Shown: positions 9,671 through 52,037, counted from the first letter of the stretch. The stretch is 64,000 nucleotides of DNA from a virus (IMGVR_UViG_3300020202_000068:13277-77276), one strand, 5' to 3'. Made by a program: numbers and translations. Notes: generated by a model from the sequence alone, not told the origin.

Positions 9671-9688
9671 TATCGTAATCCTTTACGG

Positions 9689-10042
9689 TTAGTCTGATCC
9701 GTGGTATCGCGCGACGTACGCTAATCGCCTAAATCCTACCCGATCACCAGAGCCGGTGGCGGTGATCTCCAGGTAGTACGTGGAGTTCTCCGTGAGCGAT
9801 ACCCCGTCTTCCAGGACCCCCTCGTAAACCCCCTGCGTGCCCGTCACGTAGGTCATAGAAACGGCGGAGGCTCCAGAGACCGCCGATCCAGCGGAGTTCT
9901 TGAGGGTGAATGTGAGCGTGGCGTCATTCAGAAAGGTCCCGGCCACCCGGTCGTACAGGCCGCTGCCAGGGACATCCCGATCGCCCCAAAAGACGACATT
10001 GTCCTCGCCGATGTATAAGTTACCGCCCTTGATTCCTGGCAC
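9689..10042 (-). CDS. tail-fibre-associated Ig-like protein
   Basis: Beta-rich, adjacent to the fibre genes. Confidence 0.55.
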   Translation of the reverse strand: MPGIKGGNLYIGEDNVVFWGDRDVPGSGLYDRVAGTFLNDATLTFTLKNSAGSAVSGASAVSMTYVTGTQGVYEGVLEDGVSLTENSTYYLEITATGSGDRVGFRRLAYVARYHGSD

Positions 10043-10066
10043 AGCAGCATCCTTGCCGCAAAAGGC

Positions 10067-10279
10067 CTATTCGGCTCCCGATCCATTCACGTAATCCACA
10101 ATCCCAACTTCCCCTTCCAGCCGGGCTCGCAGGCCTATCTTACCATCTAGGTAGGGGTAAATCCCGACCATCCCGATCAGCGCGTTCACCAGCGGCACGG
10201 CCTGGGCCTCACCAGCCACCCAGGTCCACATCTGACCTGAGCAGTCCAGCTGCCCGGATTGATGGAGTTCGGTGATCAT
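10067..10279 (-). CDS. hypothetical protein
   Basis: TAATG-coupled to the fibre gene. Confidence 0.5.
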   Translation of the reverse strand: MITELHQSGQLDCSGQMWTWVAGEAQAVPLVNALIGMVGIYPYLDGKIGLRARLEGEVGIVDYVNGSGAE

Positions 10280-11847
10280 TAGGTGGGTTGCGTGCGGAAC
10301 TGAATAAAGCGGGTGGCGCAGCCAGTCCCAGTGAACTTCAAGAGGATGTTATCCGCCGTCATCTCGGTGCTTGTGAGGGTGATCTTATAGGCCCCAGCAC
10401 TGATCTCGCTGGCGCTGTTCGAGCAGGAGGCAAAGGCTCCGCCATCCTTACTGATTGTGGCCGTGACCGTGACTCCCGTCTCCGGGGTATTGAAGTCCGT
10501 GGCATCCACCATCACGAATGTCAAGTCAGCCAGGGCCACTCCACGGGTGGGGCGATTCGGATTATCGGCAATGATGGAGTCCACGAGCAGGTCCAGCCGA
10601 CCGCCATTGGCCCAATCCGTTTGGAGTTCATTCGTATCCGCCAGGATCGCCGTAATATCCGTCTGGGCCGTGGAGAGCGATGAAGCTGTAGCGTAGCTTG
10701 CTGCTGCAAGCGTCCTAGCCTCCATCTCGGCATTTGTGGGTGGGTCGTACACGGCCAGGGCGTCTGCTACTTCACTCTGTGCTTCGGCGTCCCAATCCGC
10801 GTTCCACTGCGCCGTCGCATGCGGGAGAATCGCGAACTCACTGCCTGACGTGGGCGTTGTGATCCAGGCTGGTGTTACCGTCGCCGTCTTCGAGCTGCCC
10901 ACGTAATCCGTGATGAGCCTCGACTGGCCCGCACCAGTGCCGCTTGTGATCCGCAGCACATTGCCGTTGTAGATGTCATCCGTGGCGCTGGCAGACGTAT
11001 CCAGAACCGCTGTCGTGGAGGTGCTGCCGCTTTGGCAATTCACACCGCTGCGGATAGCCTTCCAGCCAGAGCCGGTAGCGAAGGAATCGGCCCCCACTCC
11101 GCCGCTGGCAATCGTAACCCCCGCTGAGACAGAGGCGACGCTTCCCAGTAGATTTCCCGTAATGTTATCGACAGTGAAGTTCACTCCACCCGTTCCGTCG
11201 AACGCCGCCTCCAGGCTATCGGCGGCCGTAGAGTCACCGCTGATTTGGGCCATGTTCACGGCTGGGATACCGCTGGCGAACGTCCCCGCCGAACCACCAA
11301 AGTTCACCACATTCACCCCAAGCTGCGCCGTACTCGTCGAGACAGCTGAGCCGGCGATGTTGATGAGGTTCGCGCGGACTTCGGTTGAGGCGACTGCGGT
11401 GCCGGCCCAGTGGGTTGTGTTAACTTCTGGGCGTCCGCTGGAGAAGGTGCCGTTGCTGCCGCCAAATTGGGTGACGTTGGCTGGCAGGTTAGCCGCGCTT
11501 AAGTCAGCTTGATACATCGCAGAGGCGTTGCCGTACGTCTCGACATCGAACATTTGGTCTTCAACGGCCTTGGTTGCCGAGTCGGCTACGGTGATGCTGA
11601 GGACTTTGCATTGCAGCTCGGCATCGCTGAATACAAACTTCCACATCGCCGTGTTGCCCATCGTGATAGCTGTCGGGAGCGTGCCGATGTTCGCAGCAGC
11701 GGCTCCATCCTTCGACACCTTCACGTCACCGGCTGATGGCGTCCAATCAGCGCTCACCGCGAAGTCCACGACGGCACGCTTGACAATCGGCACGTAAACA
11801 TCAGCGCCCGTGCCAGTGCCGTATTTGCGAAGAAAAACTCCCATCAA
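10279..11847 (-). CDS. tail fibre protein
   Basis: Ala/Thr/Ser/Gly-rich with internal repeats NVTQFGGSNGTFSSGRPEVN / NVVNFGGSAGTFASGIPAVN; related Ig-like N- and C-terminal domains (VSKDGAA / ISKDGGA). Confidence 0.7.
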   Translation of the reverse strand: MMGVFLRKYGTGTGADVYVPIVKRAVVDFAVSADWTPSAGDVKVSKDGAAAANIGTLPTAITMGNTAMWKFVFSDAELQCKVLSITVADSATKAVEDQMFDVETYGNASAMYQADLSAANLPANVTQFGGSNGTFSSGRPEVNTTHWAGTAVASTEVRANLINIAGSAVSTSTAQLGVNVVNFGGSAGTFASGIPAVNMAQISGDSTAADSLEAAFDGTGGVNFTVDNITGNLLGSVASVSAGVTIASGGVGADSFATGSGWKAIRSGVNCQSGSTSTTAVLDTSASATDDIYNGNVLRITSGTGAGQSRLITDYVGSSKTATVTPAWITTPTSGSEFAILPHATAQWNADWDAEAQSEVADALAVYDPPTNAEMEARTLAAASYATASSLSTAQTDITAILADTNELQTDWANGGRLDLLVDSIIADNPNRPTRGVALADLTFVMVDATDFNTPETGVTVTATISKDGGAFASCSNSASEISAGAYKITLTSTEMTADNILLKFTGTGCATRFIQFRTQPT

Positions 11848-13552: not shown

Positions 13553-13567
13553 TCAATCACTCCCTAT

Positions 13568-13648
13568 TTATCGTTTTCGAGGCTGCATGAGTTCTTTCCG
13601 ACGTTCCTTCGGCAGGTATTCGCGTTCAACCAGTTCCGGGTCGTGCTG
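13568..13648 (-). pseudogene. displaced original 3' end of gene 14123-14509
   Basis: Encodes QHDPELVEREYLPKERRKEL*-like peptide, paralogous to QWDVELAEREVLPKEKRKEL at the end of 14123-14509. Confidence 0.8.
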
Positions 13649-13649
13649 G

Positions 13650-14509: not shown

Positions 14510-14518
14510 TCGTGCCTC

Positions 14519-14734: not shown

Positions 14735-14743
14735 GCGGGCCTC

Positions 14744-15094: not shown

Positions 15095-15120
15095 GGGGCG
15101 AATCCATTCGTCCTAATTAA

Positions 15121-15570: not shown

Positions 15571-16031
15571 GCGACGACCCTCCGAGACAGCAGGCGAACG
15601 AGTGCATTCAGCCACCAATCGTTCCAGCCGCTAAGAATACAGTAATTGCGATCGAAGACCCCATCGTGATGGCCAGCGTGGTGCTGGGGGCTGATGATCA
15701 GGCGCGTGGCCTGTAAGAACGCCACAAACCTCCCACCGCCCTCATGCGCCCAGTAATGCGGGAGCTGGGCGAAGCAGCCGATCACACCCGCGATCGTCAG
15801 AAACTCTGAGTGAACCCAGGCCCCGTAAACCAAGGCCGGAATAGCTGCCAGCATAGGCTGCCAGTCAAAGCCGTCCATGGAATTGGTCTTGTGATGGTTC
15901 TCGAACAGGTCGATCTGCTGCTGGACGTTCCAGCCCTTGTCGGTGAGCAGGTGATAAACGCCCGTTAAGGCATCCACCAGAATGTAGGCCAGCACGGCTT
16001 TCACGAAGAGCATGAGGATCGCGAGCATCAT
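15567..16031 (-). CDS. CarF/TMEM189 (Kua/FAD4-like) lipid desaturase family protein
   Basis: GVYHLLTD, FENHH, HYWAH, QHHAGHH, NYCILSGWN: eight-His membrane desaturase pattern. Confidence 0.85.
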   Translation of the reverse strand: MMLAILMLFVKAVLAYILVDALTGVYHLLTDKGWNVQQQIDLFENHHKTNSMDGFDWQPMLAAIPALVYGAWVHSEFLTIAGVIGCFAQLPHYWAHEGGGRFVAFLQATRLIISPQHHAGHHDGVFDRNYCILSGWNDWWLNALVRLLSRRVVA

Positions 16032-17304: not shown

Positions 17305-17314
17305 AGCCGGCCTC

Positions 17315-17659: not shown

Positions 17660-17754
17660 GACAAGGCCTCCATGCCAAAGAACGTCCATCATCGACCAGC
17701 CGTGATCATACACGGAACGTCAGTGGTTACGCAAAGACCCACCCGAAATGGCTA

Positions 17755-21306: not shown

Positions 21307-21403
21307 TGATTCCTTCCTTGGAATCTGTAATTCTAGTGAATCCCTGGAGGGACGCCGCTATAGAACCTCCAACCCTGGCGTTCGGGACGCGGCACAGAAC
21401 GCA

Positions 21404-21791: not shown

Positions 21792-21793
21792 CT

Positions 21794-23449: not shown

Positions 23450-24047
23450 GATTACTCCCAGTCCCTGAGATCAATTCCGCTCTCAAGATCGTCCCTGACT
23501 GCTGTCAGGAGGTCGTTTTCGTTCACGGCTCACCCCCATCCGTGTGAGGTAAACCCCTGAGTTTGTGCATTCTTTTGTAGGGCGGGAGGGAATTTTTGTC
23601 GTGCGGGCTTCCGGGGTTTGCAATAAGTCGGGGGCCTTGCTATGGTTACGGACGGCAAGAGGGTATGGATTTACATGACACATCTTCAGCAATACAATCT
23701 GAGCAGCGTCTGTGGGTCCGGCCTCTTGCCAAGAGCCTCCACGATATTGGCCCAGCACTCCGCCTTGTAAGCGGTTTGTTGGGCCTTTTTCGTGCGCTGG
23801 CTCCTTATTCGGAGGCGGTATTGGATGCCGCCCGGCAAGGACGTGCCGGATAAACCCGCCACCAGGCGAGGTAAAGACGCCTATCGAAATCAGTCACCCA
23901 TAGCCGAGAGGCGGGTGCAGGTTGGAACGCTATCGTTCTCCCGGTCATGCTGACGACTCCAGGCCAGGGCTAATAGAGATAGCGGCGGTGGAGGAATCCT
24001 AAGGCCGTTGTTAATAGAAACTTAGGACGCTAGAGCGATGCCCGGCT

Positions 24048-24676: not shown

Positions 24677-25198
24677 ATGGCTGAGAAGTGGAGGCCATAT
24701 CGTTCAATCGGCAAGGAGCTGGTTGAGAGATATGGCCAGAGCGGAGAGATGAATTTACTGGACAAGGAAACTGACATATTGAGTGTCCTCTGCTATCTGA
24801 CCAAGGAAGTATCCGAATTAAAGAACCTACTGACCGTGTTGAGTCTTGATCGTCTGCATGTCGCAAGAGCAAGCCATGAGGACTGGCGTCAGAGAAACCA
24901 GGAGCTTGACAACTGGATTCAAGCGAAAGAGGCCAGACACGGTCCAATCCCAAAGCGTGTCAGGTCGTATATCTCTAGTCAGTGGCTGGCTGTATGGGAT
25001 GGCTTGAACACAATGAGATTGCCGTGGGTTGAAGAAGATGGCTCGATATTTGGCATCACGAGGCGTAGCATCATCATTCCAGGGCCGAAATGGGAGCCAA
25101 AGTTCACCACGCGATCGAAAGTGGCCAAAGAATACCAAGACTGGGTCGGCACGGTTCGCAAGCCCGATCGCTCAGCTTCACCATCGGAATCCAATTAA
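24677..25198 (+). CDS. hypothetical protein
   Basis: AAGGAG SD. Confidence 0.6.
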   Translation: MAEKWRPYRSIGKELVERYGQSGEMNLLDKETDILSVLCYLTKEVSELKNLLTVLSLDRLHVARASHEDWRQRNQELDNWIQAKEARHGPIPKRVRSYISSQWLAVWDGLNTMRLPWVEEDGSIFGITRRSIIIPGPKWEPKFTTRSKVAKEYQDWVGTVRKPDRSASPSESN

Positions 25199-28628: not shown

Positions 28629-28841
28629 TGTCGTTCCTTCTATTGGCTAGTTGGCGACCATCCTGGCCGCATAACGATCAGTTATTTACCGGACAATCGT
28701 TCACTAGAAATCCTACCACAAGGCGATTCCAATGGACCTGTCGGGTGGATCGTCCGTAAAAATCCACGCCAGGACCAGGAAATGCTGGTGATCGGCCGTC
28801 AATGTGTCGTCAAAATGTCAATACGGACAGGGAGGTGTCCC

Positions 28842-29042
28842 ATCTTGGTGCTATCACGAAAAAAAGGCGAACGTCTTATTATCGGCGAGGACATCGCGAT
28901 TGAGGTCGTCGAGGTCAGGGGAGACCGCGTCAGGCTCGGCCTGGAGGCACCGGACTATGTATCCATCGTCCGGGAGGAGCTATTAGACGTGCTGCGGGAG
29001 CAGGCGCAGCGCGAGACTAGGCTGGCGAGGGCAGCCGGCTAG
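28842..29042 (+). CDS. csrA: carbon storage regulator CsrA/RsmA (RNA-binding translational regulator)
   Basis: (I)LVLSRKKGERLIIGEDIAIEVVEVRGDRVRLGLEAPDYVSIVREEL. The Met1 position is ATC; alternative TTG at 28845. GGAGG SD at 28831-28835. Confidence 0.95.
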   Translation: MLVLSRKKGERLIIGEDIAIEVVEVRGDRVRLGLEAPDYVSIVREELLDVLREQAQRETRLARAAG

Positions 29043-29380
29043 TCGGTAAGTCGGAAGAGCCTACGGAAGAATCGCGAGGCCCTGGCTCCCAGTGAGTTCA
29101 GGGTCTCTTCTCTTTGTGGGCATTTGCAGGGCTTTACCAGACCAAGCATCCGCTTGATCCGATTGATTCGTCGTGGGGTGATGCTGAATACTTCCGCGAT
29201 GATAGAGACCCAGCAGCCAATCTCATGGGCGAATGGCAGTCCATTGCAACTTGCCAAGATTTTTTCGTTTCCGTGAGGCGTCGATAGCGGCCTCGTGTGG
29301 CGCGTGCATGTTGGCCGGCGGCATCGCACGCGGCGAATTCCGTTTACCGTGTCGCAGATGTCCTCCCAGTCACATCGCAT
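29039..29380 (-). CDS. Cys-rich hypothetical protein
   Basis: PCKCPQREETLN motif typical of the last tail gene in this phage type. Confidence 0.6.
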   Translation of the reverse strand: MRCDWEDICDTVNGIRRVRCRRPTCTRHTRPLSTPHGNEKILASCNGLPFAHEIGCWVSIIAEVFSITPRRINRIKRMLGLVKPCKCPQREETLNSLGARASRFFRRLFRLTD

Positions 29381-30589: not shown

Positions 30590-32133
30590 GGCAGCTCCTC
30601 CAGCTTAAGGGCGAACCGCTTCTCCTGGGCGGAGCGATCGAGCACGTCGTACTCACCACCTTCATAGACCCTGGTCCGGGGAGGCTTATTGATCACCCAC
30701 TCCCAGGTCACTTGGGCGATATTGCCGTTCAGTGTCCCGAATACCAGGCCTGGATAAGTGATCTCGCTGGAGTACGGACTTTGGTACTTGTCGATGAAGA
30801 TTTGGACGTAGGCGTCGGCTTCAGCGATGGTCTGCTCCTCTGTGCTTAGCCCGCTCTGGAGGTCATAGACCGAGAACAGCTCGGGACGCCGGAGGAGCAG
30901 GTCACCGCCATCCCCGCCAACTGTCCCGAAGCGGTAGATACCGCCCACAAACCCCTCGACGGTCTTGAGCTTATAAGCCGTAATCAGATAGAGCGTTGGC
31001 TCGGCAAAGGTCCCCGTGCTGGAGAGCTTGAAGAGTGGCGTATTAAACTCCACGATCTGCCGTTCCCTATGGAGGACGAACGGCACGAAAGATCGCGAGT
31101 TGGTGTGATTAGTGGCGATTTCCAGATAGCCCCAGCACTCCCCGACCTCGACGTAGGGCTGGAGGCTGTGCTGGACGTTGTGATAGTCGGTCTCGGAATA
31201 GAGGATGTAGTCCTGGAGAATGTATTGGTTGATGTTCGTGATCGGGAAGGGGAAGTTCCCGACCGGCAAAGTGCCGTTCTCCTGGCCGATAATCTTGTAC
31301 ATCCGGTACACATCCTCGAAGGCCCGAATGCGATGCTGGGCATTGCCCGACAGGCCAGCGAATATCCAGGGGTGCTCGTAATCCCAACCACCAGCGGGTT
31401 TGATGTTGGTTTGGGAGAGCGACTTCTGCTGGTTGCTGGGATAGTCCCGACAAGCAGCCTGAAGCCTTAGCCGGCTCTGCCAGAGGCTGTCTCCGCAGAT
31501 CACCACCACGCGGTTGGGGACGTTGGCCCGAGGAGCGAACTGCACCTTCGGCAGGACCTCGCCGACATCCGTGGGCGTCCCATTGCCCTGCCCCAGCCGC
31601 CAGATTTCCACCTGATTCGTGAGTGGGTTCAGCACGACCTCGCAGGCTACATAGTCACAGAGCCGCTGAAGGGCGATGTCCGCTCGCTCGTTCTGCCAAT
31701 TGCAGCGGGGAAAGACCCCGCCCGGCATTTGACTCACGTCGTAGCCTGACTCGCCGATGGCATCTAAGAGCAGGGTCGCTAATTCAGCTGGTGACTTCCT
31801 GGTGATCTCGTCGATCTCGCCCGCCGCTGTCCGTCGGTTCCAGTCGCCCCCGATCGTCTTCCCCGCCCACCGCCACCGCCGGTCTAAGAGATGCACGGCC
31901 AGGATCGGGTGGCCATTATGACGCTGCCGGAGATGGGCCGATTTGATGGCCATATCCGGGAATTGCAGGGAGATTTCGTTGTAGGTCAGGGTGAGCGTAC
32001 CGACTGAATCCACGACCTCTTGCGGGGTTAGGTAAAGACAGGCGACCGAGGGGGTCACGCCCCGCGCAAACGGGAAGCGGACGGCCCGGATACCGCTGAG
32101 TCCGCTATGCGTAATCCCTGATTGAATCGGCAT
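30586..32133 (-). CDS. baseplate hub/tail tip protein
   Basis: DRRWRW, LQRLCD motifs; position after tail genes. Confidence 0.55.
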   Translation of the reverse strand: MPIQSGITHSGLSGIRAVRFPFARGVTPSVACLYLTPQEVVDSVGTLTLTYNEISLQFPDMAIKSAHLRQRHNGHPILAVHLLDRRWRWAGKTIGGDWNRRTAAGEIDEITRKSPAELATLLLDAIGESGYDVSQMPGGVFPRCNWQNERADIALQRLCDYVACEVVLNPLTNQVEIWRLGQGNGTPTDVGEVLPKVQFAPRANVPNRVVVICGDSLWQSRLRLQAACRDYPSNQQKSLSQTNIKPAGGWDYEHPWIFAGLSGNAQHRIRAFEDVYRMYKIIGQENGTLPVGNFPFPITNINQYILQDYILYSETDYHNVQHSLQPYVEVGECWGYLEIATNHTNSRSFVPFVLHRERQIVEFNTPLFKLSSTGTFAEPTLYLITAYKLKTVEGFVGGIYRFGTVGGDGGDLLLRRPELFSVYDLQSGLSTEEQTIAEADAYVQIFIDKYQSPYSSEITYPGLVFGTLNGNIAQVTWEWVINKPPRTRVYEGGEYDVLDRSAQEKRFALKLEELP

Positions 32134-32346: not shown

Positions 32347-33671
32347 CTGAAGGTGATGGTCTTGTTCGTCCGTGGATGAATGATGGTGACTTCATCAAGA
32401 GTGCAATCAATCAGCTGGATTACTACGTTCCCGGTCCTTCCCTGGGGGTCCCTGAAGGTTGATCCGGCAGACATGGTGATCGTGTTGGTGATCGCGAAGC
32501 TGGCCACGCCCTTGGTGCAGTCGATCTCGCCACCGTTGAGGTCGAGAGTGGTGATCGTCGCCGCCCCAGTGGGCCAGAACTTCGCTCCCTTGTTCACGGT
32601 CAGGCTGGTAATGGTCCCGGCCCCATGCTTCCAGATGCCACCGTTCGCCACCCCAGTCGCTAAAGCGGAATTGGTAGTCAGGCTCCCGCCGTTGATCGTG
32701 ACCGTGGCGGAATTGAACGTGACTCCTGAGCTACAATAAGTCTCGGCCTGGGAGGTGGGGCCGCTACCGTTGATCAGCGTCGTGCAGGTAAAGGTCTCAC
32801 CGCCATAAAAAGCCAGCCCCACATCCCCGTCGAGGTTCCGCACGACGTTGGAGTTGTTGTTGCCGATCAGGAGGATGCAGGGGACACCGTTTGTTTCCCG
32901 CGTACCCTTACCGAAGACGTTATAGACCGAGGCGACTGTGCCGCCGTCGAGCTTGATCCGCCCGCTGCCAGGTCCCGCCCCGACTTCCAGGTCGGCATTC
33001 GTGAAGCCGTCAGCCGTGAGGTATTGAGGGGTGCGGTATTCCGGGTAGGGGTTCGCCGAGTCATCGACGTTCGTCCGGGCCAATCCGATCTTGCCGTTGT
33101 AGCTCTTGTACTTCGTGAATTGGGTGACCGCGATCGCTCCCAGGTCCAGCTCCCACAGGCAGTCCACGCTGCCGGTGTCGAAGATGACCGTGTCGCCATT
33201 ACCAGGAACCGCGTTACCATCCCAGTTATCGGCCTGATTGGCGTGATTGCGGCTCGTGGCGGCTGTAGCGGCGTTGGTGTAGTTCACTGCACCGTCGCCA
33301 GCCGTCGTCTCCGCTTCCGTCATCGTGAACGGCGTGCCAGCTAGAACCCCTGTGCCGGCCGTCGTAATCGTGACCGTGCTGGAGCTGACCGTAGCTGAGA
33401 GGTTGCCGAACTGCGGAATGCCCTGTGCCCCAAGGTCAGCGATCGAGGGCACGCAGCTGGCGGTCGTGTCGGCAAGAGTGTCGCCGTTTAGGGCCTCTTT
33501 GATCGTGGTGGCAACGCCGGCTGTGGTAGTGTTGGCACCAATCGTGATCACGAAATCGACATTCGCGATCGTGTACGTTTCAGTGTCTCCGGCCCCCCAC
33601 GTACCAGACACGATCGCTGTCGCGACTTGCCGCACCGCCTTCGAGGCACCAATCCATTTTGCAGTGGCCGT
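32343..33671 (-). CDS. tail protein with beta-helix-like repeats
   Basis: Thr/Gly/Asn-rich. The frame continues upstream of GTG 33635 to ACG-GCC-ACT-GCA-AAA-TGG (ATAKWIGA..AVRQV); probable ACG start. Confidence 0.65.
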   Translation of the reverse strand, partial: TATAKWIGASKAVRQVATAIVSGTWGAGDTETYTIANVDFVITIGANTTTAGVATTIKEALNGDTLADTTASCVPSIADLGAQGIPQFGNLSATVSSSTVTITTAGTGVLAGTPFTMTEAETTAGDGAVNYTNAATAATSRNHANQADNWDGNAVPGNGDTVIFDTGSVDCLWELDLGAIAVTQFTKYKSYNGKIGLARTNVDDSANPYPEYRTPQYLTADGFTNADLEVGAGPGSGRIKLDGGTVASVYNVFGKGTRETNGVPCILLIGNNNSNVVRNLDGDVGLAFYGGETFTCTTLINGSGPTSQAETYCSSGVTFNSATVTINGGSLTTNSALATGVANGGIWKHGAGTITSLTVNKGAKFWPTGAATITTLDLNGGEIDCTKGVASFAITNTITMSAGSTFRDPQGRTGNVVIQLIDCTLDEVTIIHPRTNKTITFS

Positions 33672-33701
33672 ATAAGTACCCTGCCTTCCTTGGCTTGGGG
33701 G

Positions 33702-35017: not shown

Positions 35018-35958
35018 TACGTGGTCTCGTCAATCGTGACTTCCAAGCTGGCCGTACTACTGACTCTGCGGGCCGAGAACTGCAACTGGAGATCGATTTC
35101 GCTCTTCCCGGCTACGACCGGCGTCACCACATCGGCCTGAAGCATTCCGAACGTGAACAGGATGCTGGTGTTTCCATTAACGAACGTCAGCGTGCCGGCG
35201 GCTGAGCTGCCCAGGGCGACGTTGTAGAGGTTGGAGGTCCCAGAGTCGTAGGGGTGCGTCGTCTGGAGCGTGATCGTCCGCCGTGTCGGGCAGAGTGAAG
35301 TCGGCTCTAAGGCGTTCACATACCGAGGCTGGACATGGTTGTTGATGTCCAGGCGGAAGGATTTGTATTCACGGGCCGACCCGCCGAGCACTAAGCGGCT
35401 AGTGCCGGAGTTATCGCTGTCTTCCAGGACGAGCGGCGTGTACTCTCCGGTAACGCCCAGGGTGACGCTGGGATAGCTCTCGGCGGAGGAGGGGTCCTTG
35501 TAGCTGCGGAACATGCACTGCACGGCACAGCGGAGGAAGTTCGGACCATTCCCAGGACCCTTCTGCTCGCCTTCGATGATGCAGCGATTGACGACGCCGT
35601 TGTAAAACTCATGGACGCCCGTGACTTTATCGACCAGCATCCCGAAGGTCTGGAGGGTCTCGGCCAAGGCGAAGGTGTTCGTGCTCTCGTCGCTCCCGAG
35701 AACCCACGGGAAGAAGAAGTCGGCAAATCCCGGCGAGAGCCCAAAGACTACCCACCCGCCGTAGAAGTACGGCTCCATCCGTGCCCGTTCGGAGATTTCC
35801 TCGCGGGTCCCATGGATGAAGTCTGGGACGCCATTGCGAGCCCGTTTTTGCAGGGACTCACGCGCAAACGGGAAGCCAGTGGCTCCCGAGCTGAAATCAA
35901 TCTCACCCGACCCCTCCTTCATGCAGAGGCGGGCGAGGGCTCCTTGTGCGCACGGCAT
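35017..35958 (-). CDS. major tail tube protein
   Basis: F..ESL, GG.V.F, SFRLDINNH, RRTITL, TP.V.G..I...L.F.A tube motifs. Confidence 0.75.
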   Translation of the reverse strand: MPCAQGALARLCMKEGSGEIDFSSGATGFPFARESLQKRARNGVPDFIHGTREEISERARMEPYFYGGWVVFGLSPGFADFFFPWVLGSDESTNTFALAETLQTFGMLVDKVTGVHEFYNGVVNRCIIEGEQKGPGNGPNFLRCAVQCMFRSYKDPSSAESYPSVTLGVTGEYTPLVLEDSDNSGTSRLVLGGSAREYKSFRLDINNHVQPRYVNALEPTSLCPTRRTITLQTTHPYDSGTSNLYNVALGSSAAGTLTFVNGNTSILFTFGMLQADVVTPVVAGKSEIDLQLQFSARRVSSTASLEVTIDETT

Positions 35959-36100
35959 TGGCGAGCATCCTTGCTCTGGTTATTTGATCCGTATAAACGC
36001 TCCTGGAATTCATTTCGGAGCGTCTCCAAGTCCCAGCTGCCACGGTCTTCATCCTCCCACTGCGGCTTTCTTGCTAGATGCGACAGAAGGAGTAGCTCGA

Positions 36101-36571: not shown

Positions 36572-37767
36572 TAGGGCTGCGTCCCTCCGGTTGTGAGGTC
36601 AGCACTGGCGACAATGTCGGCTAGGTTACTAACCATCTTCCCGCCGGGCTGGGTTTCCTCCATTCGCTGGTCAGCAGCCATTGCCAGGCTCAGGGCCCGC
36701 TCGTACCGGGCCTGCCGCTCTTCGTAGCCCTTCCGGTCGCCTGGGGCGAACTTCGCCTCACAGCCCAGCAGGAAGGCGTTCCGCATAGCTCCGGGCTCGA
36801 TGTCGATCCGGCTGGAGATGCGGTAATTACTTCCCGAGAGGGTGGTGTCGGCGTCTTGTTCGAGGATCAACTCGGTGGCGGAGTTGCGGGTCTTGATCAC
36901 CCGCTGCATGGCGTACGGCTCCAGCCGGTTCTTGTCGATCTCCCCCTGAAAGTCTGTGGGAATCTTTACCGATCCGGTGGCACTGAACCGCATCACGCAC
37001 CCCTCATGGGCAGCGGTGAACGTCGTGCTCGTGCCGGTGACCGTGGCGGAGTCGGCCGTCGTGGCCACCGTCCCGATGCTGTGGTAATCCAGGGTCTTTA
37101 ATGGCTGGGGCCAAAAGAGTCCCAGAGCTTGGTAGGTGATGGCCGAGGCTGGGGCAGGGGCAAAGTGGATGGCCAGTCCCGAAGCATATCGCTCGGACCG
37201 AAACACTGAATACATTCTTGGCGTGCTGGCGGTTCTGGCGATTCGCTGCTCGGCGATAATATCTCCGGGGTCAACGCACTCAACGAGTCTCCCAGGGGAG
37301 GAAGTGTCATAAAGGGAGAGGAGCTTACGAAGGTTATCGGGGAGTTCGTAGGTGTCTCTAGCAAGCGTATAAGACGTTCCCGACGCAATATCTCTCGTCG
37401 GAGCGTCCTTCTCATCCAGAACCACCACCGTCGAACTCGTGCGCGTAGTGATCCCATAACGGTTCCCTGCAATCCAAAGAGCGTATTTCGTCACGTCGCT
37501 GGGCCAGGTCGTGCTGGTCAGCGTCACTGAGCGGGTCGAGGCCGTATAGGCGACCGAGCCGGTCGTCTGCTGGGCTGCTGTGGGGATCGTGATGGGCCGG
37601 TAGTAGTATCGCCAGTTCCGCCGCATGGCGATCTCGGCGTACATCTCCTGCACGGCCCGCGTAGCCATCCGGCGACTACGGGGCGTTGAGTCTCCTGAGA
37701 GCACGGAATCCAGGACGTGATCGACACAATCCTGGACCGTGAGGAGTGGATAATTGATTAGGCTCAT
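36571..37767 (-). CDS. head-tail adaptor protein
   Basis: WRYY, YELPDNLRKL, TPRMY..F.PAP, ARYERAL motifs. Confidence 0.65.
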   Translation of the reverse strand: MSLINYPLLTVQDCVDHVLDSVLSGDSTPRSRRMATRAVQEMYAEIAMRRNWRYYYRPITIPTAAQQTTGSVAYTASTRSVTLTSTTWPSDVTKYALWIAGNRYGITTRTSSTVVVLDEKDAPTRDIASGTSYTLARDTYELPDNLRKLLSLYDTSSPGRLVECVDPGDIIAEQRIARTASTPRMYSVFRSERYASGLAIHFAPAPASAITYQALGLFWPQPLKTLDYHSIGTVATTADSATVTGTSTTFTAAHEGCVMRFSATGSVKIPTDFQGEIDKNRLEPYAMQRVIKTRNSATELILEQDADTTLSGSNYRISSRIDIEPGAMRNAFLLGCEAKFAPGDRKGYEERQARYERALSLAMAADQRMEETQPGGKMVSNLADIVASADLTTGGTQP

Positions 37768-37797
37768 ACGCAGCCCTCCATGGCTGGAGGACTAGGC

Positions 37798-38463: not shown

Positions 38464-38498
38464 CGGGGGGAATCCTTTCCTTGAGGCGATGCTTTGCC

Positions 38499-39301: not shown

Positions 39302-39601
39302 TTACTCCTCTGAGAATGGGATTGGTGGCATGTACGACTGAACGACCTGTTCGCCTCTCGCGGCCCCCATAGCCACGGCCAATCCCCTGTCGATCTCCAT
39401 CTCGGGCTCATCAGCAAGCCGCAGATTGTTCAGGAAATTGGCGTACTGCGAGGCACGGCGATGATGGTCTGGCCCATAAAAGCAAGTCACCATCGCGTTA
39501 TCACGGAGGTACGGTGTATTGACCGGGTGGCACTCCACTCGCGTGCAGCCGCGATATGCCTGGTCAGGCATGACGTTGATTAGGTAATCGCAGTAGTTCA
39601 T
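39302..39601 (-). CDS. hypothetical protein
   Basis: ATGA-coupled to the portal gene. Confidence 0.55.
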   Translation of the reverse strand: MNYCDYLINVMPDQAYRGCTRVECHPVNTPYLRDNAMVTCFYGPDHHRRASQYANFLNNLRLADEPEMEIDRGLAVAMGAARGEQVVQSYMPPIPFSEE

Positions 39602-42600
39602 TTCTTACTCCCTGAGGGTTTCGGCTTGGCTGCGGCTACGGCTTTTGTAGCCTGCACTTTCGCCTGTGTCGTTTGTTTGGTGCTATCCACTTTGGCCTTC
39701 GTGGCCTGCTTGGATTGCTCGATCTTCTGCTGGCCCTGGGCCTTATCGAGCTGCATCTTCTGAGCGCCCTGGGCGAGCTGCTGGCCTCCCTGCGCCTTCT
39801 GGAGCTGAAGCTGCTGCCGTCCCTGAGCAATCTGAAGAGCCCCCTGCTCCTTCGTCACGGCCAGGTCCACCTGACCCTTCTCCTGCTGGAGCTGGAGGTC
39901 CTGCTGATGCTCCTGTTGTTTGAACTGCATGTCAATCTGCTTTTCCTGAATCTTCAGTTCCAGCTCGACACGCTTGGCCTCTAGCTCAGCTTGCAGCTTC
40001 TGCATTTCCATCTGGAGCCGCTGGACTTCAGCCTCCTGCTCCATCTGGAGTTCCTGCTGCTTGAACTGGGCTTCCATTTGAAGCTCGACCATCGGATTGG
40101 CCTGGGCCTCGCCCTGGAGCTTCATGGCCTCGGCCTGGAGCTTCTGAACCTCTGCCTGCTTCATCTGCTGATCCAGCTGGGCGTTCGGATCATTCGGGTC
40201 CTTCTGCGGGAACATGAGTCCGTCCAGCTCCATGTCGTGCAGTTCCGCGAACTTCCGCATGTAGCCGTTGGCCGGCTCGTAATCGCCGGAGAGTTCCCCG
40301 TACTTCTGCACCATTGGCAGGAAGCGGGTCCCGAACTCAGAGAAGTTGTCGATGTCTCGATCCTTGTTTGGCCGGCGGATACTGGCCGCTGCGACCTCGT
40401 ACCTCATCTGCCGCATGATCAGCTCGTGGTCGGCGTTCTCGATGTACTGGGCCCAGAGAGAGGCTCCCGTGCGGCCCATGAGCGGGGCCACGTCCTTGCT
40501 CTTCACGAACATCCAGGCGATCAAGGCCTCGACGCTGGCCACCCGGCTCTGCCACTCCACGACCTTCTTCTGCATGTGCTCGGGACGCACCCCGACCGCT
40601 TGCTTGCGGGCGTTGGTGGTCTCGGCCGTGCGGTCCTGGGTGCCGCCTTCGTTCTGGCCATACACGAACGGGGTCATACCCATCCGCTTATCGAACAAGC
40701 TGTTCAGTAGCTCCAATACCTCCCAGGGGTCCTTATTAATGTCCTTGCCCTCGACGAGCTGGATCATCTTCTTGACATCCTGATCACCGCCGATGGGAAT
40801 CCCGAAGACGCTCATATCGTCGCCGTCTTCGAGCTGCTTCTTCAGCTCGTCGTGGTACTGGCTCATCACGGCCCACATCTGCCGGCTGGATTGCCAGGTG
40901 CGGTTCACGAGCCAGGAGACAATGGCGTTGATCGCCTTTAGCTCACCCAGAGCGGGAGCCAATGGAGGGAGTCCGTATGGACTGTCTGTGTCCTGGTAGA
41001 AGATGAGTCGCTCAACAGGCCATCTATCATCGGTCCAGAGAGGGATAGGCCACTCGAAATGTGATCTAACCTCTTCAGAACTAGCTCCGCTCCTAATTTT
41101 GTCGGATGGGCAGTTGAGTGGGTACGGGCAATCAGGGCAGATCGCAAGGTAGGCGTAATCACCGACGGTTTCCTCCAGCTGATTCTTGAGCATGTCCGGC
41201 ATCCCGGTCATCCGGCTGCCGACACCGCATTTCGACCAGATTTCGTACCAGACCACCAGGTCGTTCGTCTTCCCGCTCTTCCGCTCTCCGGTGGCTTGGC
41301 CTTCCTGGCTCATGGCTTCGGCGTAATGCCAGCCTGACTCTAGGGAGGCCTTGCCTTTGAGAGCGCCTTTAGGGAGCTTGAACTTCCGCTCGACCTGCCA
41401 GTGGGGCTGGATGTGCTTGCGGGCCACCCACTTACACTGTTGGGAGGTCTTGAAGTCAGGGTCGTAGATCAGGTCTTCCGGGGGGCAATGGAAGCAGCCA
41501 GTGAGCTGGAGATCGGAGCCCGGCATCGTATAGGGACCCGGGATCAGGCAGCCCGCCCCCTTGAGCATGGCGTCTAGGACCGCCAGTTCGTTATGGCCCG
41601 AGAGCCCGTCCCCCGGCATTTCCCGGGGCGTGTAGTTCAGCCACTGCTGCATCATGTGCCCGACGATTTTGTCGCTGGCACTTTCCTGGGCAGCTTGCTG
41701 CTGAATGAACTGATAGAGCTGCTGATCGGGGAACAGCTCGGGTGGGATTTCCAGCAGCTTTTTGCTCGTAGCTGTGCGATGCGGTACGTCCCATAAGAGA
41801 TTGGGGCCGAAAACCGCCACATACTCGAAAGCCTTGTTGATATTGATCCGAAAGCGGGGAGCCTTCACTCCCCGCCAGAACTTCTTGGCGTACAGCGGGT
41901 CCCACATGGCAGCCGCTGACTTGCCGTAGAACATGACGCAATTGCCGCTAATTAGCGGCTTGCCGTTGCGGCGTGTGATCAGCGTACCGTTCGGGACGGT
42001 GGCGCAGTACACCATTCCGTCGTACTGCTCCGTGTGGTACTTCAGCTTAATCTCGTCGCCGGTGTGTCGCTTTAGAGAGGCTCGCTTGCCTTCGCTCCAG
42101 GAGGTCACGAGGTAGAGCTTGCCGCTCATCCCGGTCCTGGTTTCGAGGCCTGGGTCGGTGATCGCGTATGGTGCTGGCTGTCTCTCGCTGATCGAGGCGC
42201 TGCGGCCGATCTTGAGCCACAACTCCTGGATGTCATCGGCAAGCTGTTTGCTGGCTGTTCCTGATATGGCATGGCCGTGGCGGACGTGGCCGTCACCGGC
42301 CAGATACCCACGCAGGAACGCGCGGATCACGTTCTGGGGGGAGTCTTTAACCCACTGAGGAACCCGCTTGTCGTAGCAGCTTGTGCCGAACTGGCGAAGG
42401 TATTCGCACAGCTCCTTGCTGGTGAATGTGTACGACTTCATCAGCTTGCTATACGGCGGAGCTGGGAACCCGACCCGCTTTGCCAGCTGCTCGTAATACC
42501 TGCGTCCAGCCGTCTTTTTCTGCGCAATGCCAACTCGATATGGAACGCGAGCTTTCTTCTCGCTCTTTTTCGAGCACCAGCCTTCGGCAATGTAAAAGCC

Positions 42601-43107
42601 AAGCCATTCGGCGAAGTCAGCCGGGTCGGTGTCGCCAACGAAATCAGGCAATCTCGGCTTAGTGCCATGCCAATTGGCTGAGGTCAGCTTTAGTTGCTCG
42701 CTACGGCGAAGGGAGCTGGCTTCCTTCAGGGCGGCCCGCCCGGAGTGTGGCGGGAAAAAGACCATTCGGTGGCCTGGGGTCACCATGGCGTCAAGAGACT
42801 TACCGGCAAAGCGGATCATCTCACCGGCCCTGTGGTGACGGACCAGCCTGGTAGGAACCTGGAACTCGATTGTGTCGGTTTCCAGGTTCACGGTCCCAAG
42901 CGGCTCGTCGCCGGTTAGGTCACTGAAGAGCATCCAGCCGGTGCTGGTGAGCACCTCTGTTTGCTCGTCATGGCATTCATCCGCCACTTCCTTCCACCGC
43001 TTGCGGGCGGGGCAGGTCAGCGCAGACTCCAGCTTGGCTAACCAACCTGTAACAATAGGGCGCAGGAATTCATAATTCCTGTCCTCGAAGGCTGCCAGGT
43101 CTTGCAT
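39598..43107 (-). CDS. portal protein (P22/podo-like, Gln-rich coiled-coil barrel) containing an intein
   Basis: Position after terminase; DLIYDPD, RTAETT motifs; long Q/E/K C-terminal coil; 824 aa after splicing. Confidence 0.85.
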   Translation of the reverse strand: MQDLAAFEDRNYEFLRPIVTGWLAKLESALTCPARKRWKEVADECHDEQTEVLTSTGWMLFSDLTGDEPLGTVNLETDTIEFQVPTRLVRHHRAGEMIRFAGKSLDAMVTPGHRMVFFPPHSGRAALKEASSLRRSEQLKLTSANWHGTKPRLPDFVGDTDPADFAEWLGFYIAEGWCSKKSEKKARVPYRVGIAQKKTAGRRYYEQLAKRVGFPAPPYSKLMKSYTFTSKELCEYLRQFGTSCYDKRVPQWVKDSPQNVIRAFLRGYLAGDGHVRHGHAISGTASKQLADDIQELWLKIGRSASISERQPAPYAITDPGLETRTGMSGKLYLVTSWSEGKRASLKRHTGDEIKLKYHTEQYDGMVYCATVPNGTLITRRNGKPLISGNCVMFYGKSAAAMWDPLYAKKFWRGVKAPRFRININKAFEYVAVFGPNLLWDVPHRTATSKKLLEIPPELFPDQQLYQFIQQQAAQESASDKIVGHMMQQWLNYTPREMPGDGLSGHNELAVLDAMLKGAGCLIPGPYTMPGSDLQLTGCFHCPPEDLIYDPDFKTSQQCKWVARKHIQPHWQVERKFKLPKGALKGKASLESGWHYAEAMSQEGQATGERKSGKTNDLVVWYEIWSKCGVGSRMTGMPDMLKNQLEETVGDYAYLAICPDCPYPLNCPSDKIRSGASSEEVRSHFEWPIPLWTDDRWPVERLIFYQDTDSPYGLPPLAPALGELKAINAIVSWLVNRTWQSSRQMWAVMSQYHDELKKQLEDGDDMSVFGIPIGGDQDVKKMIQLVEGKDINKDPWEVLELLNSLFDKRMGMTPFVYGQNEGGTQDRTAETTNARKQAVGVRPEHMQKKVVEWQSRVASVEALIAWMFVKSKDVAPLMGRTGASLWAQYIENADHELIMRQMRYEVAAASIRRPNKDRDIDNFSEFGTRFLPMVQKYGELSGDYEPANGYMRKFAELHDMELDGLMFPQKDPNDPNAQLDQQMKQAEVQKLQAEAMKLQGEAQANPMVELQMEAQFKQQELQMEQEAEVQRLQMEMQKLQAELEAKRVELELKIQEKQIDMQFKQQEHQQDLQLQQEKGQVDLAVTKEQGALQIAQGRQQLQLQKAQGGQQLAQGAQKMQLDKAQGQQKIEQSKQATKAKVDSTKQTTQAKVQATKAVAAAKPKPSGSKK
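41941..42975 (-). mobile_element. intein with LAGLIDADG homing endonuclease (345 aa)
   Basis: Starts CHDEQTEVLT..GW; block B VTPGHRM; WLGFYIAEG and FLRGYLAGDG; ends VYCATVPNGTLITRRNGKPLISGN, with Cys at +1. Confidence 0.95.
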
Positions 43108-43124
43108 TTAGGCGTCCTTGCCTG

Positions 43125-43592: not shown

Positions 43593-43721
43593 CGGAATCC
43601 TTTCCTGGGGTAACAAAAATAGTGAACGTCATGTCCCCGAACGGCATGTTCAGATCGTAACGCCCGTCAAGGAGCAGCTCCGTGCCGTCTCCTAAATTCT
43701 CATCGAGCCAAATCGCACTCA

Positions 43722-46393: not shown

Positions 46394-46916
46394 TCTCCTC
46401 CTGTCCCAGGATGGCCTTGAGGGCGGCCCCTTTCGCCAGGCTCTCTGGCGTCGAGCCGCTTAGTAGCTCGGTCATGCGGACGATGAGCGTGGCCTTCAAG
46501 GTCTCGTCGTCCATCTGCTTCCAGTCGTCTTCGAGCTTCATGCGATCCACCTTGGCGTGGAATCCAAGGAGCTTGAGGGCGGCCTGTACAGCCTGAGGCT
46601 TGGTCTTCGGGTGATCACCCATATCCTTGATCCAGGTGACCACATCTTCCATGAAGGCCACCGGACCACCCCAGGCGTCGTACCCCTGAGACACCATCTG
46701 TTCTAACGGACGCAGGCCCTTGCCGGCTTCGTTGGCGTCGAACAGCTTGGCGATAACCTGCCCGGCCTTCTTGACTCGGAGGTCCTGGATGCGCATGGCC
46801 TGGTCAACGGGGACGCAGGCCTGGCATCGCTTTTCCCCGACCGGCAGCCCGTCAAATTCAATGACAGGCTTCCACGCCAGGCAGCCGGGGCACTGGAGTT
46901 TCTCAGAATCGCTCAT
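46383..46916 (-). CDS. Zn-finger protein, possible terminase small subunit
   Basis: CPGC..CQAC; AALKLLG..; KQMDDETL tail; upstream of terL. Confidence 0.45.
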   Translation of the reverse strand: MSDSEKLQCPGCLAWKPVIEFDGLPVGEKRCQACVPVDQAMRIQDLRVKKAGQVIAKLFDANEAGKGLRPLEQMVSQGYDAWGGPVAFMEDVVTWIKDMGDHPKTKPQAVQAALKLLGFHAKVDRMKLEDDWKQMDDETLKATLIVRMTELLSGSTPESLAKGAALKAILGQEEIGD

Positions 46917-48609: not shown

Positions 48610-48625
48610 TTCCAACTCCTCCAAT

Positions 48626-48669
48626 AAAAAACCGACCGCTGAGACCGTGCAGGCGATCTCAGGGTCGGC
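48626..48669 (-). terminator. intrinsic terminator after capsid/cement genes
   Basis: GCCGACC-CTGAGATCG/CGGTCTCAG-C-GGTCGGT followed by TTTTT. Confidence 0.7.
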
Positions 48670-48765
48670 TAAACCCCAGTGGATTTTCATCCACAACAAA
48701 GCTCCCCTCAGGGAAAAAGGAGCCTTGTTCTATGTCCCATACCTGCATATGGGGATTTCGATCGC

Positions 48766-49404: not shown

Positions 49405-49478
49405 TGTGAGAAATCCTTTTCTCGCTAGTCAGTTTTTGCCTTTTGGCGAATACCCTGAATCCTGAGGGGTTAAATGGC

Positions 49479-50591
49479 TTAGGCGAAGTTCTTGAGCTTG
49501 GCGAAGAACTTCGGGCTCTCGAAGCTGGCCTGGCCGTAGAAGCCGCAGGCCCAGAGGGCCGCATAGCCACTACGCGGGTCTTCGGTCGGACCACGCATCC
49601 AGAACAGCTCGGGCATCAGGCTCGCGATCTCCATCTTGGAGGTGTTGAGCATGTAGCCGGTGTTGGCCGGGCAGTCGTAGTCCGAGCTGATCGCACAACC
49701 ATCCTGGTTCAGGGTGAAGCCCTGGAAGCCGAGGTCGTTGGCGGTCTTGTGCGGGATGCTGATCCGGCGGATCGCTTCGTCGTGGTTCTTGTACGACTGG
49801 AAGAGATTGGGAGCCAGGACGCAGAGTTCCGGGCCACCCTCGTCGCCGTTGGTGTGGGTCAGCCAGGTGATCGTCTGGCTGATGACGCGCCAGCAGTTGT
49901 CTTCGAACGTGGTGCTGCCGGTGCCCCAGCCCGTGCTCGACCAATTGACCAGCTTCGGCGCGAAGTAGTCGTACTCGCTGTCGCCCGAGCCGTCCGGCCA
50001 GTCCTTGGCCAGCGTGGCATTGGGATACGTTGAGAGAGCCGAACTCCAGGTCCCGCCCTGATCGGCGAGGTTGGTATTCAGGCCGGCGTAGCTGTCATTG
50101 GGTGTGGAGATGCGGTTGCCGGCGGCGCTATTGGCCTCGGTCATGAACGTCTCCAGGCCGTAGATCGCGTTCTCGCGACCCGACCCACCACCTGCGCTGT
50201 AGATTTCCGCTGCCAGACCGTTCTGGAGCTTCTTCATCAGGCGACCTTGTTTGGTCTTGAAGAGATTGACGAGAGCGGCTTCCCCGCTGTTCATCGCCTT
50301 CTGCTTCATCGTGATCGAGTCCGAGGCCTGGTAGCCCGACCACGGGAGGACGGCCTGTTGGAAGGCCTGGTGATTCGTAAAGTCGATCATCGAGCCGTCG
50401 CCATGCTGGTGCATGGTGGGCTGCGAGAACTCAACCTGCCAGCGGAACTCATAACCGCTGTTGTTGAACGTGATCCGGCCCTTCCGCTTGAGCATCGCAA
50501 ACAAGAGACGCTTGCGAACGGTCAGGTCCGAGGCCCCCTTCATGTAGGCTGGCTTCGTGGTATTGATTACGCCAATCCATTCGTCAGACAT
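49479..50591 (-). CDS. major capsid protein (HK97 fold)
   Basis: 370 aa after the scaffold; GLETF, LGFQGF..DG..I..DYDCP....Y.LNT. Confidence 0.88.
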   Translation of the reverse strand: MSDEWIGVINTTKPAYMKGASDLTVRKRLLFAMLKRKGRITFNNSGYEFRWQVEFSQPTMHQHGDGSMIDFTNHQAFQQAVLPWSGYQASDSITMKQKAMNSGEAALVNLFKTKQGRLMKKLQNGLAAEIYSAGGGSGRENAIYGLETFMTEANSAAGNRISTPNDSYAGLNTNLADQGGTWSSALSTYPNATLAKDWPDGSGDSEYDYFAPKLVNWSSTGWGTGSTTFEDNCWRVISQTITWLTHTNGDEGGPELCVLAPNLFQSYKNHDEAIRRISIPHKTANDLGFQGFTLNQDGCAISSDYDCPANTGYMLNTSKMEIASLMPELFWMRGPTEDPRSGYAALWACGFYGQASFESPKFFAKLKNFA

Positions 50592-50593
50592 CG

Positions 50594-50611
50594 CTTTTCA
50601 TCCTTGAAAAG
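50594..50611 (-). promoter_or_regulatory. CsrA-type RBS hairpin of the major capsid gene
   Basis: CTTTTCA-AGGA-TGAAAAG, 2 nt before ATG. Confidence 0.75.
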
Positions 50612-50692
50612 GCCGGCGTAGGGCAGGCCGCCCAGGTCAGCGTCGTGCTGGCCCTAGGAAGGGCGTGATGCCTACTACCGAAATCTCGTCGT

Positions 50693-51877
50693 TCAGGCCG
50701 CCCCGCTGTGCTGCCGGTAAGCGTTGCTGAACATATTTTCTAGCTCGCCATCATTGGCGACATTGAATTCCCCGCCGGAGGTGTAGGAGCCTTGACTGGC
50801 TTCCTGACCTGCTTTACGGCGAGCGGCATCAATGAAAGATTCCTGTTTCGTCTTCGGCGGCTCAGGAGCCGGCGTCCCTGCCGGCAGAAACCGTCCTTGG
50901 TCATCCCGTGGCCGCTGATCAGTGTTCGTATTTGTAGCAGAAGGATTCGGATTTGGCGCGGCAGGCTGCGCAGGCTGGGCTGCGGCCTGAGGATTGATGC
51001 CGGCAAACCGCATCGCGTAGTCGGCCAGCTCCTGGACCGTGCCCTGGAAGCCCCGGGCCTTGAGGTCGGCGATCGCGGTCTTGAGCTTGACGCCGTCGGG
51101 GCTCAGGTTTTGGCCGTCGGGCGTGAGTAGCCAGGCCTTGTTCTGGTCGATGAACTTCTGCTCGTAGCTCTGGTTCTCGTATTGTTCGAGCCGCTCCTCG
51201 GTCATCCCGCTGAACTTCGAAGAGAACTTGTGTTCGAAGTAGGGGAGCAGCTTCTCCGCCATGAACTTGACGGGGTTATTCGCGAAGGCCTCGTTCTGCT
51301 GGACTTTGGCCTGTTGGTAGTCGTTGATCTCGCGGAGGTACTGCATCCCGACAGCGTTGAGGTGCGGCTCCTTCGAGGGTACGATCATTCCTTGTTCGTT
51401 GGTCTCGAACGCCCCGTGCTCCAGAGCCCACTTGGCTCCCGGGCTCAACTGCGGGACGGTCCAAGCTTGGGAGAAGAACTCATCTTCATTGAACTCGACA
51501 TCTGGGGCGTCATCGTTCTGTGGCTGAGCGGCTTCTGCTTCGGCACGGTTTGGGGGATGTGCCAGCGCTGATCGCCCATAGTCAGCGTATGGCCGGAGGT
51601 TGGCGTATTGATCGGCCAGGTACTCGGCGAAGCGTTCAGCCGAGTCGATCCCATCCAGCGGCAGGCCCAGCTGCTGGGCTCTCGCCAGGAGTCCCGGAGG
51701 CAAGGACGCAGGCGGTGGCGTTACATCACCCCCTGATTGAAGCCCCTCCGAGCCCTGATCCACAGCACCTTGAGCCTGCTGCTGGGATGGTAGCGAAGCC
51801 TCATCGTCGGGTGGCGTCCCGGGCGTGAGGAGTGTGTCTTCGAGATTGAGATCGAGTCCGTTCGATTCTGCCGGCAT
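50693..51877 (-). CDS. capsid scaffolding protein
   Basis: Acidic, Q/P-rich, RPRDDQGRF motif; ATG 51877 preceded by TTCGC-AGGGAA-GCGAA. Confidence 0.8.
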   Translation of the reverse strand: MPAESNGLDLNLEDTLLTPGTPPDDEASLPSQQQAQGAVDQGSEGLQSGGDVTPPPASLPPGLLARAQQLGLPLDGIDSAERFAEYLADQYANLRPYADYGRSALAHPPNRAEAEAAQPQNDDAPDVEFNEDEFFSQAWTVPQLSPGAKWALEHGAFETNEQGMIVPSKEPHLNAVGMQYLREINDYQQAKVQQNEAFANNPVKFMAEKLLPYFEHKFSSKFSGMTEERLEQYENQSYEQKFIDQNKAWLLTPDGQNLSPDGVKLKTAIADLKARGFQGTVQELADYAMRFAGINPQAAAQPAQPAAPNPNPSATNTNTDQRPRDDQGRFLPAGTPAPEPPKTKQESFIDAARRKAGQEASQGSYTSGGEFNVANDGELENMFSNAYRQHSGAA

Positions 51878-52037
51878 AGATTCGCTTCCCTGCGAAATAG
51901 TGAGACTTGCCATCGTGGCAAGGTGGGGTATTACTTGTGGTAATAACGCAAGTTGTTATTTTTGTCACGCGGCTCTTGCCAGAAACCCACGCTTTCCTCC
52001 ACAATAAACCCGTCACGCAACCCATAAGGAGTCTTCC

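Follow-up and report, generated by a model that had tools for sequence, protein, structure and literature searches.

Introduction

Why do the late genes of a phage carry their Shine-Dalgarno (SD) sequences in the loops of short hairpins, and could a CsrA protein be what reads them? The question is raised by a soil phage of Planctomycetes, the 77,276-bp IMG/VR phage contig IMGVR_UViG_3300020202_000068, whose bases 13277-77276 were analysed as one stretch of 64,000 nucleotides (nt), called the window below. A sequence-only reading of this stretch had listed 13 hairpins over the ribosome-binding sites (RBS) of late genes and had proposed that they act, together with a csrA gene of the phage and a candidate sponge RNA, as a post-transcriptional early/late or lysogeny-silencing switch. 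Phage-borne csrA genes are widespread, but what they do during the phage cycle has hardly been tested apart from a knock-down of csrA in PTXU04, which led to small plaques (PMC11879866). If the hairpins are indeed CsrA sites, a phage CsrA would for the first time have a concrete set of targets, and the timing of structural genes in a virus would be translational and depend on a borrowed global regulator. Here we show that the hairpins with GGA in the loop at the late RBSs are real, non-random and lineage-specific, and we weigh what may read them.

Hairpins at the late gene starts

The virion, tail and lysis genes of the phage are grouped in a block on the minus strand, between about 9.3 and 51.9 kb, and the plus-strand genes flanking it on either side are replication-type and small early genes. 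All 13 listed stem-loop-stem strings were found on the minus strand at the coordinates given in Table 1, with their 3' ends 0-9 nt upstream of the start codon, where they overlap the SD region. Genes were called by our own codon-usage score and starts were picked on SD strength, blind to structure. For every start we looked for a GGA between -20 and -3 in a loop of 3-8 nt and recorded the longest perfect Watson-Crick stem that closes such a loop, and the statistics were kept to Watson-Crick stems since allowing G-U pairs inflated the weak hits. A stem of at least 4 base pairs (bp) around GGA was present at 14 of the 40 minus-strand starts and one of at least 5 bp at seven, against 3.3 and 0.8 expected when the flanks are shuffled with GGA kept fixed, and the observed counts were reached in 0 of 2000 shuffles (P<0.0005). 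The plus strand, whose inspected early starts the sequence-only reading had described as unstructured, does not go beyond chance, with 5/61 starts at the 4-bp and 1/61 at the 5-bp threshold (4.5 and 1.1 expected). Late and early starts differ in hairpin frequency (Fisher p = 0.0013), also when the comparison is kept to starts with 15 nt or more of intergenic sequence before them (late 11/24 vs early 4/44, p = 0.0014), and in Boltzmann sampling the probability that GGA lies in a hairpin loop was above 0.5 at 12/40 late and 7/61 early starts. For GGA elsewhere in the genome the rate is 9-10% at the 4-bp threshold and about 3% at the 5-bp threshold. The enrichment is limited to the late (minus-strand) genes, with a hairpin at roughly one in three virion and lysis genes, and four sites of at least 4 bp (starts 46393, 30589, 14509 and 10231) come on top of those that had been listed.

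The closest cellular relatives of the capsid gene are found in prophages of Planctomycetaceae and Planctomicrobium. The hairpins are not a general Planctomycete style of SD sequence, an explanation that had been named as one that would refute the switch: in a Planctomycetaceae metagenome-assembled genome (MAG), which carries a related prophage, is not necessarily the host of this phage and was scanned with a crude gene caller, 12/127 starts passed the 4-bp and 3/127 the 5-bp threshold, a background level.

We folded the region from -30 to +3 around each listed start. The proposed hairpin is the minimum free energy (MFE) structure, with GGA in the loop, at 11 of the 13 sites (-2.7 to -8.3 kcal/mol), and the two exceptions are the adaptor (37767) and portal (43107) starts. 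At the portal start the MFE takes a competing pairing. At the adaptor start it is a 10-bp helix with UCCUCC paired to the SD GGAGGG (-17.4 kcal/mol, z = -3.9), and the CCCTCC...GGAGGG pairing of this gene is also present in two related phages, G008 and G009. This helix is a device that sequesters the SD and does not present it, a textbook coupling element, and 11 nt separate the listed hairpin from the upstream stop. The same RBS (37765-37797, minus strand) holds a mini open reading frame of five codons, AUG GAG GGC UGC GUA UGA, which overlaps the real start as AUGA. Taken singly the hairpins are weak, and most of the 33-nt leaders are no more stable than their own shuffles; the non-random feature is the position of GGA and not the folding energy.

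Table 1. Late-gene hairpins and the csrA locus in the window (stem-loop-stem in DNA letters; aa, amino acids)
Feature	Position	Strand	Context
TTCGC-AGGGAA-GCGAA	51881..51896	-	3 nt before ATG 51877 of 394-aa scaffold-position gene; MFE -5.5 kcal/mol, GGA in loop
CTTTTCA-AGGA-TGAAAAG	50594..50611	-	2 nt before ATG 50591 of major capsid protein (phrog_9953 major head protein)
GAGAAA-AGGA-TTTCTC	49408..49423	-	3 nt before ATG 49404 of 212-aa gene following the capsid gene (decoration position)
TCCTG-GGA-CAGGA, not in the earlier list	46399..46411	-	5 nt before TTG 46393 of NT5C-like gene
GGAA-AGGA-TTCC	43594..43605	-	1 nt before ATG 43592, 155 aa
Possible AGGC-AAGGAC-GCCT	43110..43123	-	before ATG 43107 of 1169-aa portal-position protein; MFE is an alternative pairing
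GGAA-AGGA-TTCC	38469..38480	-	5 nt before ATG 38463, 221 aa
CAGCC-ATGGAG-GGCTG (37771-37786), overridden by SD-sequestering helix	37771..37797	-	'adaptor', 398-aa gene starting at 37767
GAGCA-AGGA-TGCTC	35963..35976	-	4 nt before ATG 35958 of tail tube protein (PF18906)
AGCT-GGAGG-AGCT, not in the earlier list	30593..30605	-	3 nt before GTG 30589
TCTCAG-GGA-CTGGGA, one G-U pair	23456..23470	-	before ATG 23449 of metallophosphoesterase
GATTCC-AAGGAA-GGAATC	21308..21325	-	1 nt before ATG 21306, 1170 aa; -7.7 kcal/mol, z = -2.9
CGAA-TGGA-TTCG	15099..15110	-	4 nt before ATG 15094, 116 aa
GCGGCA-AGGA-TGCTGC, one G-U pair	10044..10059	-	before GTG 10042, 117 aa; -8.3 kcal/mol
CGTAA-AGGA-TTACG	9674..9687	-	3 nt before ATG 9670, 111 aa
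csrA, 65 aa, TTG start	28845..29042	+	PF02599, 69 bits vs cut-off 27
Possible GGACA-GGGAGG-TGTCC	28825..28840	+	csrA leader, over its own SD

Selection on structure in related phages

To follow the hairpins through related phages we collected nine IMG/VR contigs and 35 metagenome contigs by capsid searches and analysed the long ones whole; the comparison covers these, and further capsid homologues at 72-79% identity (P0010, P0014, P0016, P0020, P0023 and P0026) come from near-complete contigs. Counted over structural-strand starts with stems of at least 4 bp, and given with the shuffle expectation, G008 (75% capsid identity) has 8/13 (0.95 expected), G006 (81%) 7/21 (2.0), G001 (72%) 7/38 (3.05), G009 (73%) 2/17 (0.97) and G007 (75%) 0/20 (1.25). 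The contig L044 (75%), which belongs to the G008 lineage, has stems at 3/3 starts, a figure for which no expectation was computed. All relatives with a capsid identity below 70% are at the null, and scans of IMG/VR with single proteins and alignments did not add any independent member to the subclade with hairpins.

As had been claimed, it is the structure and not the stem sequence that is kept, the loop being retained while the stems differ at orthologous genes. The capsid gene has CTTTTCA/TGAAAAG in this phage (G000) and in G001, TTTAGC/GCTAAA in G006 and CGCA/TGCG in G008, and at the decoration position GAGAAA/TTTCTC is replaced by GGAAA/TTTCC in G001 and by GCGA/TCGC in G008. The 1170-aa gene has GATTCC/GGAATC here vs CTTC-ACGGAG-GAAG in G001, the portal ortholog of G008 has GCGGC-ACGGAG-GCCGC and the ortholog of gene 38463 in G006 has CGGAA/TTCCG. 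The hairpin of gene 43592 occurs with the same sequence in G008 and as variants in G001 and G006. No hairpin was found at the tail tube orthologs of the relatives. The 14-mer GAGCAAGGATGCTC, which makes up the RBS hairpin of the tube gene here (35963-35976, minus strand), is present in G001 (near 35422) and G006 (near 15760) at the start of the portal gene, with its ATG as the apparent start codon; it could be a moved RBS cassette or a case of convergence.

The hairpin structure is under selection, in one subclade only, because the trait recurs in three related lineages with differing stems at orthologous genes. When five virion proteins are concatenated and their tree is rooted on G002-G004, G008 branches off first, followed by G007/G009 and then by G001 together with G006 and G000, so that the hairpin-poor G007/G009 lineage is nested among the hairpin-bearing ones.

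The csrA gene of the phage

The bona fide csrA that had been ascribed to the phage is confirmed by its PF02599 match (Table 1), and an alignment to the CsrA structures from B. subtilis and E. coli (1y00, 1t3o) shows that the RNA-binding arginine of VREE is retained. It is the lone plus-strand gene within the minus-strand tail module, convergent with the gene at 29039-29380, and G001 and G006 have it in this antisense position too, directly behind the ortholog of gene 30589. No FliW was found in the phage. The contig of the hairpin-free G007 runs 3.4 kb past the syntenic csrA site with co-directional tail genes only and no csrA there, and six more distant relatives lacking csrA at that locus have hairpins at background. 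Hence the expected association of csrA and hairpins holds in part: hairpins accompany the antisense csrA of the tail module and are missing in the nested G007, which lacks csrA at that site, but csrA alone does not predict them.

What may read the hairpins

We consider the binding of a CsrA-family protein to the late RBS loops, with a block of initiation, to be the best explanation for these hairpins and give it a probability of roughly one half. According to this explanation the late RBSs of the lineage would have evolved short hairpins whose loops of 4-6 nt expose the SD GGA; typically the loop is an NGGA tetraloop, closed by A-U and placed on a CA/UG stem. The reader would be the phage CsrA or one of several host paralogs. 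CsrA over the SD would block loading of the 30S subunit, so that translation of the capsid, decoration, tube and other virion and lysis genes might be held until CsrA is withdrawn. Such a tetraloop on CA/UG agrees with the consensus RUACARGGAUGU obtained by SELEX (systematic evolution of ligands through exponential enrichment) and with the RsmE-hcnA RNA (PMC2896534, PMC11882435), and the placement of a site in a hairpin increases the affinity of CsrA (PMC2896534). Five CARGGATG octamers are found in the genome, three of which are late SD hairpins. Since csrA is a lone gene antisense to the tail operon around it, transcription of the late genes, on passing through csrA, could shut it off and release the late messages. 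That the phage commands a CsrA regulon of its own, with the antisense csrA of the tail operon clamping the late RBSs until late transcription ends it, would amount to an early/late timer undescribed in phages; we put this scheme forward tentatively, as possible but rather doubtful.

A number of points weigh against CsrA as the reader. ANGGA is also the SD consensus, so that the loop sequence alone does not discriminate. A second GGA 10-63 nt away would permit bridging by the CsrA dimer; every site has one or more additional GGA within 65 nt, but the excess is slight, with a mean of 3.5 vs 2.5 expected. In the csrA leader the MFE pairs GGGA with UCCC instead of forming the possible hairpin over the SD. 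A scan for promoters and terminators around csrA gave nothing usable for the timing of csrA. The co-distribution of csrA and hairpins, as far as it can be read from the contigs, fits the hypothesis and rests on roughly one gain and one loss, which is phylogenetically thin, and the csrA locus of G008 lies off its contig. The remaining points of this kind speak at the same time for a function of the structure itself without any CsrA, namely tuning or insulating the late RBSs with a weak AAGGA SD in a defined fold, translational coupling where an upstream stop adjoins, and/or stabilisation of processed segments of the late mRNA by 5' stem-loops, with the co-occurrence of csrA being a matter of shared ancestry. 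Thus, at 6 of the 13 sites an upstream stop lies 1-18 nt ahead of the hairpin, within reach of a terminating ribosome that could melt it, and at the adaptor RBS the SD is not in a loop, as had been claimed, but in the stem of a stable sequestering helix of the classical anti-SD:SD type, conserved in G008 and G009. Phages with csrA and without hairpins exist as well: G002-G004 carry a co-oriented csrA at another position and show no hairpin enrichment, and the unrelated csrA-positive phages Pseudomonas phi297 and Vibrio 431E46.1 have 0/26 and 0/28 hairpins at structural genes. The hairpins are also weak, at -3 to -8 kcal/mol, and 5' stem-loops are able to stabilise mRNA, as in the case of the T1 stem-loop of cel (PMC2896534). 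However, 7 of the 13 hairpins, namely those of capsid, decoration and tube and four others, have no upstream stop closer than 55 nt, and a role of structure alone does not explain why it is the loop that holds GGA, and not the stem or the sequence outside the hairpin, or why an A-U-closed NGGA tetraloop on CA/UG is used. It also fails to account for the lack of the trait in early and host-like genes and for its loss in the nested lineage without csrA at the site. We take it as the main rival, an explanation that could apply but is not the probable one.

Another RNA-binding factor of the phage might read the hairpins instead, either an activator like Com of Mu or a repressor like those acting on coat operators, and csrA would then have another use, for instance to reprogram motility, metabolism or defence of the host. 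Most proteins of the late region have no family assignment, which leaves room for such a factor, csrA is conserved in hairpin-less relatives, and host manipulation has been proposed for CsrA of mobile elements (PMC11879866, PMC7366521). We nevertheless regard another factor as improbable, as no candidate gene co-varying with the trait was found, the GGA loop is the sole feature common to all hairpins and a known determinant for CsrA, and the free variation of the stems makes a sequence-specific reader of stems unlikely. Least credible of all is chance combined with selective reading, applied to short palindromes around AGGA in a genome of 59% G+C: the background rate of 9-10% and the mostly non-significant z-scores of the leaders would be in its favour, but 14 observed vs 3.3 expected stems, the 0/2000 shuffles, the replication in G006 and G008 and the lack of the trait in early genes, in the host-like MAG and in distant relatives are not compatible with it. 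Chance is refuted for the set, while single 4-bp sites are individually uncertain.

Natural controls for the role of CsrA are offered by the sister phages, which differ both in whether they have the hairpins and in whether csrA occupies the site. Even if CsrA should not be involved, the phage would still be a clean case of lineage-specific selection for an RBS architecture with the SD in the loop.

Sponge RNA, lysogeny and further features of the genome

Two other parts of the proposed switch found no support. The candidate sponge RNA at 7161-7230 has an unexceptional ANGGA density, its 4 ANGGA in 70 nt being equalled by six other segments of this size in the genome, five of them fully coding; only some of its motifs lie in loops of the MFE structure and an Rfam search of 7161-7230 gave no family match. 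G001 has one comparable non-coding segment, at 24974-25043. A lysogeny-silencing role is not established either: no tyrosine integrase was found in the genome, and the sole recombinase found is a 292-aa serine recombinase of the resolvase type (53753-54631, plus strand), which adjoins the divergent early/late junction.

Besides the major head and tail tube proteins, the late block contains a weak terminase match. The 1169-aa portal-position protein (39598-43107, minus strand) has a LAGLIDADG_3 domain at residues 260-309 and aligns to its relatives only from residue 386 on, which points to an intein or to insertion of a homing endonuclease. A gene for a 430-aa protein has its start region (33635-33700, minus strand) 3' of a GCC-AAGGAA-GGC hairpin; its relatives start with ATG GCA .. 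AAG TGG ATT GG, whereas this phage reads ACT GCA AAA TGG ATT GG and has no canonical start codon at that position.

On the early side, the RBS cassette AATAAGGACTTA with a TAA-GGAC-TTA mini-hairpin is common to three genes (52394 and 56518, plus strand, and genome base 8015, outside the window). A hairpin with the CsrA consensus, CCTCA-TCAAGGA-TGAGG (7894-7910, plus strand), lies within an early coding region and not at a start. CTGTCAC was considered as an early-promoter motif and rejected, as 10 matches vs 7.8 expected are no enrichment. The MAG (G010; L079-L084, L103) encodes six csrA paralogs, one of them directly 5' of a flagellin gene on the same strand. The flagellin leader of the MAG, tried as an example of a local CsrA site that could serve as positive control, turned out to be uninformative, its SD having no GGA. 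The public sequencing runs listed as matching the phage are soil DNA metagenomes only, with no RNA run among them.

Relation to known systems

A full-text literature search returned no paper on a phage late module with CsrA-type SD hairpins and a csrA of its own; phage csrA genes and the repression of the ColE7 lysis gene by CsrA are already known, and it is the late-module combination that is new to the literature searched. The closest structural parallel is the complex of RsmE with hcnA RNA (PDB 2JPP), whose RNA GGGCUUCACGGAUGAAGCCC has an A-U-closed NGGA tetraloop on CUUC/GAAG (PMC11882435). The capsid hairpin CUUUUCA-AGGA-UGAAAAG shares the architecture of CUUCA-CGGA-UGAAG, with A-U closure on a C-G pair and overlap with the SD, and the stems are short and variable in both cases. 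However, RsmE-hcnA and SELEX concern targets on the host chromosome and a host regulator with measured binding, whereas here the targets would be virion genes of a phage.

In the case of ColE7 cel, CsrA holds back a lethal late function of a mobile element, at the SD plus a GGA in a hairpin loop (PMC2896534), but there it is one gene and the CsrA of the host, while here roughly 14-17 sites are spread over the whole late module and csrA is borne by the element. With the csrA genes of other phages and plasmids, carried by about 1.2% of phages (PMC7366521), and with CsrT, the CsrA paralog on the integrative and conjugative elements of Legionella (as cited in PMC7366521), this phage shares a CsrA paralog on a mobile element; for none of these has a self-regulon comprising late genes been described, and phi297 and Vibrio 431E46.1 are without hairpin enrichment. 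Finally, the coat-protein operators of MS2 and Q-beta, as well as coupling by hairpin melting, gate the translation of phage genes with a small hairpin at the RBS, and six of the sites described here adjoin a stop. The MS2/Q-beta operator is a single, sequence-specific hairpin, whereas the late module of this phage has many, with unrelated stems and only the GGA loop in common.

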